Assembly (NCBI RefSeq): GCF_050920415.1
Contig: NZ_CP169309.1
Source: Escherichia coli
GTDB lineage: Bacteria > Pseudomonadota > Gammaproteobacteria > Enterobacterales > Enterobacteriaceae
Direction: 5' to 3' (one strand)
Length of the DNA stretch: 64,000 nt
How positions within the stretch are numbered: the first letter of the stretch is position 1; each line of letters begins with the position of its first letter. The notes below the pieces were generated by a model that did no database searches, was not told the DNA's origin, and saw only the letters and a program-made list of their open reading frames with translations. The position numbers and the translations under genes are program-made. Positions 2,037 through 63,744 of the stretch are shown piece by piece.

Positions 2037-2190
2037 TGTAGGCCTGATAAGGCGCGCCAAGCGTCGCATCAGGCATTGATGTCGGATGCGGCGTAAACGC
2101 CTTATCCGACCTACAAAATCACCCTAAATCAAGCTATTGCGCAGTCTGGCGTAGGCCTGATAAGACGCGGCAAGCGTCGCATCAGGCATC
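2037..2190. repeat. REP/BIME cluster (two palindromic units)
   Basis: gtaggcctgataagRcgc...gcgtcgcatcaggc and tcggatgcggcgtaaacgccttatccgacctac motifs, between convergent yjcO and gltP. Confidence 0.85.
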
Positions 2191-12652: not shown

Positions 12653-12732
12653 TGTAGGCCTGATAAGACGCGACAGCGTCGCATCAGGCATTGATTGCCG
12701 GATGCGGCGTATAACGCCTTATCCGGCCTACA
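12653..12732. repeat. REP/BIME cluster
   Basis: tgtaggcctgataagacgcg...tgccggatgcggcgtataacgccttatccggcctaca. Confidence 0.85.
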
Positions 12733-59615: not shown

Positions 59616-59969
59616 AACAATTTCCCTTCATTGAATGAATGGAGATTTACCCAAAAACATTTCGGGCGGGATCGAGTATACACAACTAAAGCATGCGAAT
59701 TACGGCGCGGAGAATTAGTGATGGGGTTTTAGGATAATTGGAATGAATATCAAATATAAGCTTCAGCTTATATATAAATAACACTAAAAATCATAAGCTT
59801 AAAATAAAAATAAAAGTAATTAATCTGCGTATTTTCCGAAATCAATCATGATTAAAAATCTATTTTAGGATTAACCTCACGGTATGATTTTCGTTAAATC
59901 ACAGACAAGGGGATTTATCTGATAAAACAATGCCGACTTATAGTCGGCATTGTTATTAAGGTTATTTAA

Positions 59970-61619
59970 TTAACCGCGCCACGCTTTATAGCGGTTAATC
60001 AGACCATTGGTCGAGCTATCGTGGCTGCTGATTTCTTTGTCATCTTTCAGCTCTGGCAGAATACGGTTCGCCAGCTGTTTACCCAGCTCCACGCCCCACT
60101 GGTCGAAGGTGAAGATGTTCAGGATCACGCCCTGAGTAAAGATTTTGTGCTCATACAGCGCAATCAACGCACCCAGGCTGAACGGAGTGATTTCGCGCAG
60201 CAGGATAGAGTTGGTTGGGCGGTTACCTTCGAACACTTTGAACGGTACCACGTAGTCAAGCGTTGCCGGATCTTTACCCTGATCGCGATATTCCTGCTCA
60301 ACCACTTCGCGGGATTTACCAAACGCCAGCGCTTCGGTCTGAGCGAAGAAGTTAGACAGCAGTTTCTGGTGATGATCAGAGAGCGGGTTATGGGTGATAG
60401 CCGGGGCGATGAAATCGCACGGCACCATCTTCGTACCCTGGTGGATCAGCTGGTAGAACGCGTGCTGACCGTTCGTGCCAGGTTCACCCCAGATAATCGG
60501 GCCAGTCTGGTAATCCACAACGTTACCGTTACGGTCTACATACTTACCGTTGGACTCCATATTGCCCTGCTGGAAGTACGCTGCGAAACGGTGCATATAC
60601 TGGTCGTACGGCAGAATCGCTTCAGTTTCCGCGCCAAAGAAATTGTTGTACCAGATGCCGATCAGCGCCAGCAGTACAGGCAGGTTTTTCTCTGCAGGTG
60701 TGGTGGAGAAATGCTTGTCCATCGCGTGTGCGCCGGAAAGCAGTTCAACGAAGTTATCAAAGCCGATGGAGAGAACAATCGACAAGCCAATCGCTGACCA
60801 TAAAGAGTAACGACCGCCGACCCAGTCCCAGAACTCGAACATGTTGGCGGTATCAATACCAAACTCACCAACGGCTTTGGCATTGGTTGAGAGCGCCGCA
60901 AAGTGTTTCGCAACGTGTTTCTCATCACCTGCCGCTTTCAGGAACCAGTCACGCGCGCTATGGGCGTTGGTCATGGTTTCCTGAGTGGTGAAGGTTTTAG
61001 ATGCTACCAGGAACAGCGTGGTTTCCGGGTTTACTTTTTTCAGCACTTCCGCGATGTGAGTTCCATCGACGTTAGAAACAAAGTGCATGTTCAGGTGATT
61101 TTTGTACGGACGCAGTGCTTCGGTCACCATGTACGGCCCGAGGTCAGAACCGCCGATCCCGATGTTCACTACGTCAGTGATTGCTTTGCCGGTATAGCCT
61201 TTCCACTCACCGGAAATAATCGCTTCCGAGAAGGTTTTCATCTTCTCCAGCACGGCGTTAACTTCCGGCATGACATCTTTGCCATCAACCAGAATCGGGG
61301 TATTGCTACGGTTACGCAACGCTACGTGCAGTACGGCGCGGTTTTCAGTGCGGTTGATCTTCTCGCCAGAGAACATCGACTTAATCGCACTCGCCAGATC
61401 GCACTCTTTCGCCAGATCCTGTAATTTCGCCAGCGTCTCTTCAGTGATGCGGTTTTTGGAGTAATCCACCAGCATCTGATCGTCGAAGGTTGCGGAGAAC
61501 TTAGAAAAACGATCGCCGTCTTTAGCAAAAAGATCGGCGATCGTAACGTCTTTCATTTCATCGAAGTGTTTCTGTAGTGCCTGCCAGGCCGCGGTCTGCG
61601 TTGGATTGATGTTTTTCAT
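59970..61619 (-). CDS. pgi: Glucose-6-phosphate isomerase
   Basis: 549-aa product starting [19 protein letters not shown]. Confidence 0.97.
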
Positions 61620-61839
61620 TAGCAATACTCTTCTGATTTTGAGAATTGTGACTTTGGAAGATTGTAGCGCCAGTCACAGAAAAATGTGATGGTTTTAGTG
61701 CCGTTAGCGTAATGTTGAGTGTAAACCCTTAGCGCGATGAAGCATTTATTAGTTGAACTACTGACCGCCAGGAGTGGATGAAAAATCCGCATGACCCCAT
61801 CGTTGACAACCGCCCCGCTCACCCTTTATTTATAAATGT

Positions 61840-62143
61840 ACTACCTGCGCTAGCGCAGGCCAGAAGAGGCGCGTTGCCCAAGTAACGGTGTTGGAGGAGC
61901 CAGTCCTGTGATAACACCTGAGGGGGTGCATCGCCGAGGTGATTGAACGGCTGGCCACGTTCATCATCGGCTACAGGGGCTGAATCCCCTGGGTTGTCAC
62001 CAGAAGCGTTCGCAGTCGGGCGTTTCGCAAGTGGTGGAGCACTTCTGGGTGAAAATAGTAGCGAAGTATCGCTCTGCGCCCACCCGTCTTCCGCTCTTCC
62101 CTTGTGCCAAGGCTGAAAATGGATCCCCTGACACGAGGTAGTT
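61840..62143 (+). promoter_or_regulatory. lysC 5' leader containing the lysine riboswitch
   Basis: About 300-nt untranslated leader recognised as the E. coli lysC leader; putative -35 TTGACA at 61803-61808 upstream. Confidence 0.85.
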
Positions 62144-63493
62144 ATGTCTGAAATTGTTGTCTCCAAATTTGGCGGTACCAGCGTAGCTGATTTTGACGCG
62201 ATGAACCGCAGCGCTGATATTGTCCTTTCTGATGCCAACGTACGTTTAGTTGTCCTCTCAGCTTCTGCTGGTATCACTAATCTGCTGGTCGCTTTAGCTG
62301 AAGGACTGGAACCTGGCGAGCGATTCGAAAAACTCGACGCAATCCGCAATATCCAGTTTGCCATTCTGGAACGTCTGCGTTACCCGAACGTTATTCGTGA
62401 AGAGATTGAACGTCTGCTGGAGAACATTACTGTTCTGGCAGAAGCGGCGGCGCTGGCAACGTCTCCGGCGCTGACAGATGAACTGGTCAGCCACGGCGAG
62501 CTGATGTCGACCCTGCTGTTTGTTGAGATCCTGCGCGAACGCGATATTCAGGCACAGTGGTTTGATGTACGTAAAGTGATGCGTACTAATGACCGATTTG
62601 GTCGTGCAGAGCCAGACGTAGCCGCGCTGGCGGAACTGACCGCGCTGCAGCTGCTCCCGCGCCTCAATGAAGGCTTAGTGATCACCCAAGGATTTATCGG
62701 CAGCGAAAGTAAAGGTCGTACAACGACGCTTGGCCGTGGAGGCAGCGATTATACGGCAGCCTTGCTGGCGGAGGCTTTACACGCTTCTCGTGTTGATATC
62801 TGGACCGATGTCCCAGGCATCTACACCACCGATCCACGCGTGGTCACCGCAGCAAAACGCATTGATGAAATCGCGTTTGCCGAAGCGGCAGAGATGGCAA
62901 CTTTTGGTGCAAAAGTACTGCATCCGGCAACGTTGCTACCCGCAGTACGCAGCGATATTCCGGTGTTTGTCGGCTCCAGTAAAGACCCACGCGCAGGTGG
63001 TACGCTGGTGTGCAATAAAACTGAAAATCCGCCGCTGTTCCGCGCCCTGGCGCTTCGTCGTAATCAGACTCTGCTCACTTTGCACAGCCTGAATATGCTG
63101 CATTCTCGCGGTTTCCTCGCGGAAGTTTTCGGCATTCTCGCGCGGCATAATATTTCGGTGGATCTCATCACCACCTCCGAAGTGAGCGTGGCGTTGACAC
63201 TTGATACCACCGGTTCCACCTCCACTGGCGATACATTGCTGACGCAATCCCTGCTGATGGAGCTGTCTGCACTATGCCGGGTAGAAGTGGAAGAAGGTCT
63301 GGCACTGGTCGCGTTAATTGGTAATGACCTGTCAAAAGCCTGCGGCGTTGGCAAAGAGGTATTTGGCGTACTGGAACCGTTTAACATCCGCATGATTTGC
63401 TACGGCGCATCCAGCCATAACCTGTGCTTCCTGGTGCCCGGCGAAGATGCCGAGCAGGTGGTGCAGAAGCTGCATTTTAATTTGTTTGAGTAA
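62144..63493 (+). CDS. lysC: Lysine-sensitive aspartokinase III
   Basis: 449-aa ORF starting MSEIVVSKFGGTSVADFDAMNRSADIVL; kinase domain plus C-terminal ACT domains. Confidence 0.97.
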   Translation: MSEIVVSKFGGTSVADFDAMNRSADIVLSDANVRLVVLSASAGITNLLVALAEGLEPGERFEKLDAIRNIQFAILERLRYPNVIREEIERLLENITVLAEAAALATSPALTDELVSHGELMSTLLFVEILRERDIQAQWFDVRKVMRTNDRFGRAEPDVAALAELTALQLLPRLNEGLVITQGFIGSESKGRTTTLGRGGSDYTAALLAEALHASRVDIWTDVPGIYTTDPRVVTAAKRIDEIAFAEAAEMATFGAKVLHPATLLPAVRSDIPVFVGSSKDPRAGGTLVCNKTENPPLFRALALRRNQTLLTLHSLNMLHSRGFLAEVFGILARHNISVDLITTSEVSVALTLDTTGSTSTGDTLLTQSLLMELSALCRVEVEEGLALVALIGNDLSKACGVGKEVFGVLEPFNIRMICYGASSHNLCFLVPGEDAEQVVQKLHFNLFE

Positions 63494-63502
63494 ACACAGT
63501 AT

Positions 63503-63540
63503 GGCCCGAAAGACATTATTTCGGGCCGTATGTTTTTCTT
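63503..63540 (+). terminator. Rho-independent terminator after lysC
   Basis: ggcccgaaa/tttcgggcc stem followed by T-rich run. Confidence 0.75.
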
Positions 63541-63744
63541 GTCATTATGCCCATCAATAAACGAGTCTATTTCCTGTTAACCAGCATCTTTATCTGAGAA
63601 TAATTACCTTTAATTTTTTATCTGCATCTCTAGCTAATTATCGAGAGAGATAAATATTTAAGAGAAGGCAAAATGAATATTATCAGTTCTGCTCGCAAAG
63701 GAATTCCCGTACACTGAACTCTCCGGCTCACTGAGGGCACCATC

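Follow-up and report, generated by a model that had tools for sequence, protein, structure and literature searches.

Results and Discussion

The pgi-lysC intergenic region and the lysC transcript

The right end of the window, by which we mean the whole stretch of 64,000 nucleotides of Escherichia coli DNA analysed here, carries pgi, lysC and yjbD as they stand in the E. coli chromosome, and a megablast comparison found the leader and intergenic region at ≥95% identity in 5425/5426 complete E. coli genomes, from which we conclude that the window is E. coli chromosome. A gap of 518 nt lies between pgi and lysC (Table 1). The latter is annotated by RefSeq as the gene for lysine-sensitive aspartokinase III, its 449-aa product carries the Pfam domain AA_kinase (1.7e-46) together with ACT domains, and a terminator-like hairpin was detected by sequence scan 3' of the gene.

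In their paper on the E. coli lysC lysine riboswitch, which cites Caron et al. 2012, Ghosh et al. 2024 (PMC10946432) count leader positions from the start of transcription, so that the G of the lysC AUG is +309, and from this numbering we derived position 61838 of the window as +1 of the lysC transcript. Further landmarks of that paper agree with the letters of the window (G349 is g62186, U354-357 are tttt62191-62194 and A364 is a62201), and the lysC 5' untranslated region, counted from the published start to the base preceding the ATG, comes to 306 nt. An earlier note on this DNA had the leader run from 61840 to 62143; its end holds, one base before the ATG, and its start is 2 nt off the published one. 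Upstream of +1, the hexamers TTGACA and TATTTA, picked by eye, are most likely the lysC promoter, judging from their spacing to the start at 61838 and their conservation in other genera; the block TTGACA..TTTATTTAT is kept in other Enterobacteriaceae. A consensus promoter scan did not report this promoter because its -10 element ends in A. Just upstream of the first aptamer helix, a perfect DNA palindrome spans +7 to +22 of the transcript and is predicted as a hairpin in every fold, though this putative RNA element could equally be a protein-binding DNA site. The sequence of E. albertii is unrelated from this palindrome upstream, the entire E. coli promoter region included.

Elsewhere in the window, five further Rfam matches exceed their gathering scores, namely sraL, three naRNA4/REP-type elements and STnc430. 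The last of these, on the strand opposite to pgi, lies immediately past the 3' end of that gene and is also found in synteny in Citrobacter, Kluyvera, Trabulsiella and others.

Table 1. Features of the lysC leader, its surroundings and other elements of the window, in window coordinates
Feature	Position	Strand	Basis or remark
naRNA4/REP-type element	2041-2111	-	Rfam, 74-77 bits (range of the three elements)
naRNA4/REP-type element	12657-12728	-	Rfam, as above
sraL	19982-20122	+	Rfam, 153 bits
naRNA4/REP-type element	47903-47973	-	Rfam, as above
STnc430	59812-59961	+	Rfam, 72.6 bits
pgi	59970-61625	-	
258-aa open reading frame opposite pgi	60021-60797	+	
173-aa open reading frame opposite pgi	60903-61424	+	
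lysC promoter, -35 TTGACA (most likely)	61803-61808	+	hexamer by eye from sequence
lysC promoter, -10 TATTTA, weak (most likely)	61827-61832	+	18-nt spacer from -35
181-aa antisense open reading frame, ATG start	61819-62364	-	ORF list
lysC 5' untranslated region	61838-62143	+	start from PMC10946432
5'-proximal hairpin or DNA palindrome (putative), CCTGCG-CTAG-CGCAGG	61844-61859	+	predicted in folds
CTGCGC direct repeat, copies flanking the aptamer	61845-61850 and 62074-62079		
Lysine riboswitch aptamer (RF00168)	61856-62052	+	cmscan, RefSeq feature
P1	61860-61866/62042-62048	+	
P2	61869-61879/61925-61935	+	
P2a	61887-61892/61913-61918	+	
P2b	61896-61898/61904-61906	+	
P3	61938-61946/61960-61968	+	
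P4	61969-61979/61986-61995	+	
P5	61997-62002/62032-62037 and 62004-62011/62018-62025	+	
L2-L3 loop-loop (kissing) contact, CCAGUC with GGCUGG	61900-61905 with 61949-61954	+	loop covariation
Anti-P1 (ON-state) helix, part a, GG.GGAGC with GCUCU.CC	62033-62040 with 62093-62100	+	
Anti-P1 (ON-state) helix, part b, GGGUG with CACCC	62047-62051 with 62081-62085	+	
Variable apical hairpin of anti-P1	62060-62073	+	
C-rich, G-poor Rho loading (rut) region, centre about +240	about 62070-62100	+	proposed in PMC10946432
RNase E Site1, UCUU, published positions 250-253	62087-62090	+	transferred from PMC10946432
Shine-Dalgarno-sequestering hairpin (OFF), CCUUGUG with CACGAGG	62100-62106 with 62132-62138	+	pairing proposed here from sequence
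Possible extension of the sequestering hairpin	62108-62112 with 62126-62130	+	
Shine-Dalgarno sequence of lysC, GAGG	62135-62138	+	
lysC, lysine-sensitive aspartokinase III	62144-63493	+	RefSeq annotation
RNA polymerase pause and Rho/NusG termination site, G of the lysC AUG (G309)	62146	+	PMC10946432
Terminator-like hairpin 3' of lysC	63499-63531		sequence scan

Identification and comparative support of the aptamer

The earlier note had recognised in this leader the known lysine riboswitch of E. coli and had named a covariance-model search as the way to check it. That search, run with cmscan, returned a strong match to the Rfam Lysine riboswitch family RF00168 (99.5 bits against a gathering score of 30; E 3.1e-25), covering model positions 1-182 of 182 without truncation, and the identification is borne out both by the RefSeq/PGAP annotation, which places a "riboswitch" feature at exactly the equivalents of the matched positions in every record examined, and by comparison with K-12. 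From the -35 box through the lysC ATG the sequence is 100% identical to that of K-12 MG1655; the sole intergenic differences are three substitutions upstream of the promoter (61742, 61743 and 61759), and within the first 222 nt of lysC, which in K-12 is b4024 with its coding sequence at 4231884-4233233, there are six differences, all synonymous. Between the end of the aptamer and the ATG of lysC, a gene which is on the same strand and encodes an aspartokinase, there are 91 nt. Of the core and junction blocks, AGAGGNGC, GAGGGG, GCCGA, UGUCAC and GGUGGAG are all present in the window, and are invariant or nearly so across the alignment of 39 leaders described below. With the same pgi-lysC-yjbD context, and with the published landmarks G309, G349, U354-357, A364 and Site1 mapping exactly, the element is the same as the K-12 lysC riboswitch, and the leader is the very locus where the mechanism of the E. 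coli lysine riboswitch was worked out and is already known. The K-12 element was reportedly studied by Caron et al. in PNAS in 2012 and by Bastet et al. in 2017. With the B. subtilis lysC L-box and the crystal structures of the Thermotoga maritima riboswitch it shares the RF00168 family, the five-helix junction, the contact between loops L2 and L3 and the core blocks, and the B. subtilis L-box likewise lies upstream of an aspartokinase gene.

For the comparison between species, contigs sampled at one genome per species were searched for the LysC N-terminus by means of the degenerate pattern KFGGTSVADFDAM, giving at least 120 loci. Among the 120 loci listed, 54 have a leader similar to that of E. 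coli over ≥190 nt, and 38 of these 54 were aligned with the window to give 39 Enterobacterales leaders. RNAalifold recovered helices P2-P5 from this alignment, with compensatory changes in 29/64 predicted pairs. We also scored an explicit OFF-state structure of 69 pairs, made up of P1, P2, P2a, P2b, P3, P4, P5 and the Shine-Dalgarno-sequestering helix, in which 95.3% of cells across the 39 leaders are paired, a share that falls to 42-46% if the partners are displaced by 1-3 columns, and in which 28/69 pairs show double-sided changes as against 17.0 +/- 1.8 in column shuffles; on no measure did any of 500 column shuffles match the observed value. The pairs with double-sided changes fall in P2 (5), P2a (5), P2b (3), P3 (6) and the outer part of P5 (8), whereas P1 and the P5 base are constant in the 39 leaders and are hence uninformative for covariation. 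The folding energy of the leader as a single sequence is modestly better than that of shuffles (z = -2.05).

The kissing contact between L2 and L3 is a feature of lysine riboswitch structures, as seen in published crystal structures. Its pairs covary across Enterobacterales, with CCAG/CUGG in 11 leaders, CCGU/ACGG in 12 and CCGU/GCGG in seven. Covariation of this contact, together with that of the aptamer helices, indicates that the aptamer is complete and under selection at the level of the RNA.

Expression platform and a model of switching

Three near-invariant blocks follow the aptamer in Enterobacterales leaders: GGUGGAGC(A/G)CUUCUGGGUG, which comprises the base of P5 and the 3' strand of P1; CGCC..CCC...CCGCUCUUCCCUUGUGCCAAGGCUGA; and CCCCUGACACGAGGU, just upstream of the AUG. 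Species-specific insertions of 0-100 nt are confined to the stretch between the second and third blocks, which is the apex of the sequestering hairpin. Such near-invariance of the platform across the 39 leaders is as expected, because the sequence has to satisfy two pairings. The first of these, anti-P1, is present both when the E. coli leader is folded to minimum energy without constraints and in the consensus from RNAalifold; 97-98% of its cells are pairable in the 39 leaders, with one compensatory change among 12 pairs. As drawn here it agrees with the published description, in which the RNase E sites are hidden within the anti-P1 stem (PMC10946432), and it covers both the UCUU of Site1 and the C-rich stretch around +240, where the C-rich run gcgcccacccgtcttccgctcttccc is visible in the sequence of the proposed Rho loading region.

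The second pairing, the helix that would sequester the Shine-Dalgarno sequence, is pairable in 93% of cells in the 39 leaders and shows zero compensatory changes, as both of its strands hardly vary. Since P1, the base of P5, anti-P1 and the sequestering helix all show almost no compensatory change, the comparison cannot decide on the exact switching helices. Constrained folding reproduced anti-P1; with P1 enforced, the sequestering helix proposed here was not the minimum-energy solution. We infer its exact base pairs from the sequence, and the published helix may be drawn somewhat differently, because ours overlaps the 3' strand of anti-P1 by only 1-4 nt.

Taken together with the published work, these pairings suggest the following model. 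When lysine is scarce, anti-P1 would form (62033-62051 with 62081-62100) as the C-rich segment pairs with the P1 3' strand and the P5 base. The Shine-Dalgarno sequence would then be free, the RNase E site and the Rho loading region would be hidden within a duplex, and lysC would as a result be transcribed, stable and translated. Lysine bound by the five-helix aptamer would instead lock P1 and release the C-rich segment as a single strand; CCUUGUG would then pair with CACGAGG over the Shine-Dalgarno sequence and block translation initiation, RNase E would cut at UCUU, and Rho would load and, with NusG, terminate transcription at the start-codon pause and further inside lysC. For the identical K-12 leader, lysine has been reported to repress translation, to bring about cleavage by RNase E independently of translation, and to cause Rho/NusG termination at the G309 pause and within lysC (PMC10946432, PMC5499598, PMC3997798), and lysine repression requires the riboswitch domain, according to the authors (PMC10946432). 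Our account of ligand dependence and of the roles of RNase E and Rho is taken over from those experiments by identity of sequence, whereas the present analysis itself establishes what the element is, that it is complete and covaries, and that the leader is compatible with both alternative pairings.

Lysine riboswitches of Firmicutes use an intrinsic transcription terminator as their expression platform. In the window, a scan found no plus-strand terminator between the aptamer and the lysC ATG, and the E. coli platform differs from that of Firmicutes in acting through Shine-Dalgarno sequestration, RNase E and Rho instead of an intrinsic terminator (PMC10946432), a difference that is already published.

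The open reading frame antisense to the leader

A minus-strand open reading frame of 181 aa lies across the leader, exactly where the earlier note had seen it. Some 40% of its length is antisense to the lysC coding sequence and some 60% runs through the non-coding leader, which has a G+C content of 58% and by chance is free of TTA, CTA and TCA in one frame, leaving that minus-strand frame open. Dinucleotide-preserving shuffles of the leader reached a 181-aa frame in 3% of cases and kept at least one minus-strand frame open across the whole leader in 13%. The earlier note had taken the frame for an artefact produced by a structured non-coding region: the tests for coding that follow bear out the artefact, but its cause is the chance lack of stop triplets together with the overlap of lysC, not RNA structure.

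One alternative is that the frame is a real, young, E. coli-specific overlapping gene, so that the leader would be constrained by an RNA and a protein at once. In its favour, the frame is intact in K-12 and in 2/3 of the other complete E. coli alleles fetched, few shuffles attain its length, and a few pipelines have annotated it as a hypothetical protein. Persistence of the frame within E. coli is however explained by the riboswitch itself, which hardly varies, and even there the third allele (strain L123) carries a 1-nt deletion that frameshifts the last ~20 codons. The annotated proteins amount to an 18-member "hypothetical protein" cluster that holds two other alleles and comes from a few dozen contigs at most, as against a leader present in thousands of E. 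coli genomes, and the exact allele of the window is absent from a collection of 15 billion proteins. RefSeq/PGAP has no minus-strand annotation at this frame in K-12 and the other E. coli records examined, a Pfam search with its translation gave no family (best E 0.57), no Shine-Dalgarno-like sequence precedes its ATG, where the minus strand reads GGGTAACGCAGACGTTCCAGA-ATG, and no promoter-like site was found on the minus strand in the upstream region scanned (62365-63700). We searched the literature for a gene antisense to the lysC locus or overlapping it and found no report of one.

Comparison with relatives argues in the same direction. In the sister species E. albertii the fourth codon of the frame is changed from TGG to the stop TGA, and the remainder is put out of frame by the loss of 1 nt from the loop of the hairpin at 62060-62073, a change that leaves the RNA unharmed but would destroy a protein. 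Most other genera have no open equivalent: the corresponding frame is closed at +188, relative to the pattern match, in most related loci with enough flanking sequence. Over the 222 nt shared with lysC, 25/30 differences between E. coli and E. albertii lie at third codon positions of lysC, and the 30 differences entail 4 changes in LysC but, in the antisense frame, 12 changes as well as a stop, a pattern which indicates that substitutions in the overlap follow the lysC frame and not the antisense one. An overlapping gene is in our judgement highly improbable.

The length of the frame is unremarkable, since the window holds about 20 other open reading frames of ≥150 aa that mostly lie under a longer one in another frame or strand. 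It resembles such shadow frames opposite real genes, for instance the two opposite pgi (258 and 173 aa; Table 1), and is unlike the usual ones in that only 40% of it stands opposite coding sequence, with the other 60% over a G+C-rich leader. The 181-aa frame is thus a chance open frame and not a gene, and is kept only as a by-product of the conservation of the RNA. On the same strand, the terminator scan reported AGCGATACTTCGCT followed by ACTATTTTCA at 62060-62073; this is the reverse complement of the apical hairpin of anti-P1, preceded by UGAAAAUAGU, with 5 pairs only, and is probably a chance match in a region that is variable in other genera.

lysC leaders without the aptamer and other lysC loci in Enterobacterales

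Among the at least 120 loci sampled, the syntenic lysC leaders of 12 genomes gave no match to RF00168. Six of these genomes are Citrobacter, two are isolates labelled Enterobacter, and Phytobacter, Trabulsiella, Dryocola and a metagenome-assembled Buttiauxella contribute one each. All 12 leaders strongly conserve the promoter and the 3' platform, and LysC at these loci is 85-95% identical to that of E. coli over the available part. What is missing is a block of ~229 nt, equivalent to about 61851-62079 of the window, that takes in the aptamer and the 5' strand of anti-P1; the leader left at the Citrobacter locus L004, for instance, measures about 90 nt. The junction coincides with the CTGCGC direct repeat that flanks the E. 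coli aptamer (Table 1), and this coincidence suggests that the aptamer was lost by repeat-mediated deletion between the two copies. Among the literature consulted for the E. coli leader we found no paper on aptamer-less lysC leaders.

Genera that keep the 3' platform without the aptamer, along with two short plus-strand open reading frames in the leader of the window (57 aa at 61943-62116 and 36 aa at 62031-62141), might suggest that the E. coli leader too is a lysine-independent region, either a constitutive target of Rho and RNase E or a leader-peptide attenuator, with a merely vestigial likeness to a riboswitch, but we regard this as practically untenable given that the aptamer of the window is complete (model positions 1-182) at three times the threshold score, that compensatory changes in relatives maintain its helices (P2, P2a, P2b, P3 and P5) and its loop contact, that both plus-strand frames cross non-triplet insertions and deletions in relatives, and that lysine-dependent regulation has been published for the identical sequence (PMC10946432).

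Outside these 12 genomes, lysC stands without a lysine riboswitch in Yersinia artesiana and Y. thracica, where only the Shine-Dalgarno block CUGACACGAGG is left, and in the two Xenorhabdus loci examined. Y. aleksiciae has a full riboswitch leader, so that presence of the element varies even within a genus.

Many Enterobacteriaceae have a second paralog annotated as "lysine-sensitive aspartokinase 3". The sampled loci include 13 of this paralog, which shares 62-67% identity with E. coli LysC at loci that cover the greater part of the gene and occurs in Citrobacter, Kluyvera, Pseudescherichia, Pseudocitrobacter, Kosakonia, Franconibacter and others. One of them (L033, 3372-4733, minus strand) matches NCBIfam NF006570 at 634 bits, and in Citrobacter youngae the paralog adjoins pth-ychF. 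In most of these loci the leader resembles the lysC riboswitch over 44-66 nt only, corresponding to P4-P5. A divergent lysine riboswitch at the second paralog was considered and rejected, as four such loci (L005, L014, L033 and L120) gave no RF00168 match at E ≤ 1, and we treat the ~50-nt similarity as a putative relic.

A rearranged leader was seen in E. coli WB61 (NZ_CP020025.1), in which a unit with an ISEcp1-family transposase and a DUF4942 pseudogene fragment lies inside the lysC leader, flanked by a duplicated 113-nt leader segment equivalent to 62024-62136 of the window. In this record just the last third of the riboswitch leader stands before lysC, and the complete aptamer lies ~2 kb upstream; an N at the junction means that the arrangement may be an assembly artefact.

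Conclusions

We are nearly certain that positions 61838-62143 of the window are the 5' leader of the lysC mRNA with a lysine riboswitch, which would switch as proposed above, and that the antisense open reading frame is a non-coding chance frame. For the window itself this amounts only to confirmation that a textbook riboswitch, correctly annotated, stands where it is expected. The lysC leader is also a useful negative control for scans based on open reading frames, because where a structured RNA is under strong purifying selection, a chance frame can stay open in thousands of genomes from a single species. Beyond E. coli, the comparison shows that the lysC riboswitch is not universal in Enterobacterales, and that in several genera the aptamer has been cleanly lost and the platform kept, so that the aptamer-less leaders present a natural experiment on the module of RNase E site, Rho loading region and Shine-Dalgarno hairpin without its sensor. 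It is conceivable, if somewhat doubtful, that this 3' third of the leader (about 62074-62143) acts as an autonomous module without the aptamer; if so, lysC in the aptamer-less species would be controlled there by something other than the binding of lysine to RNA.
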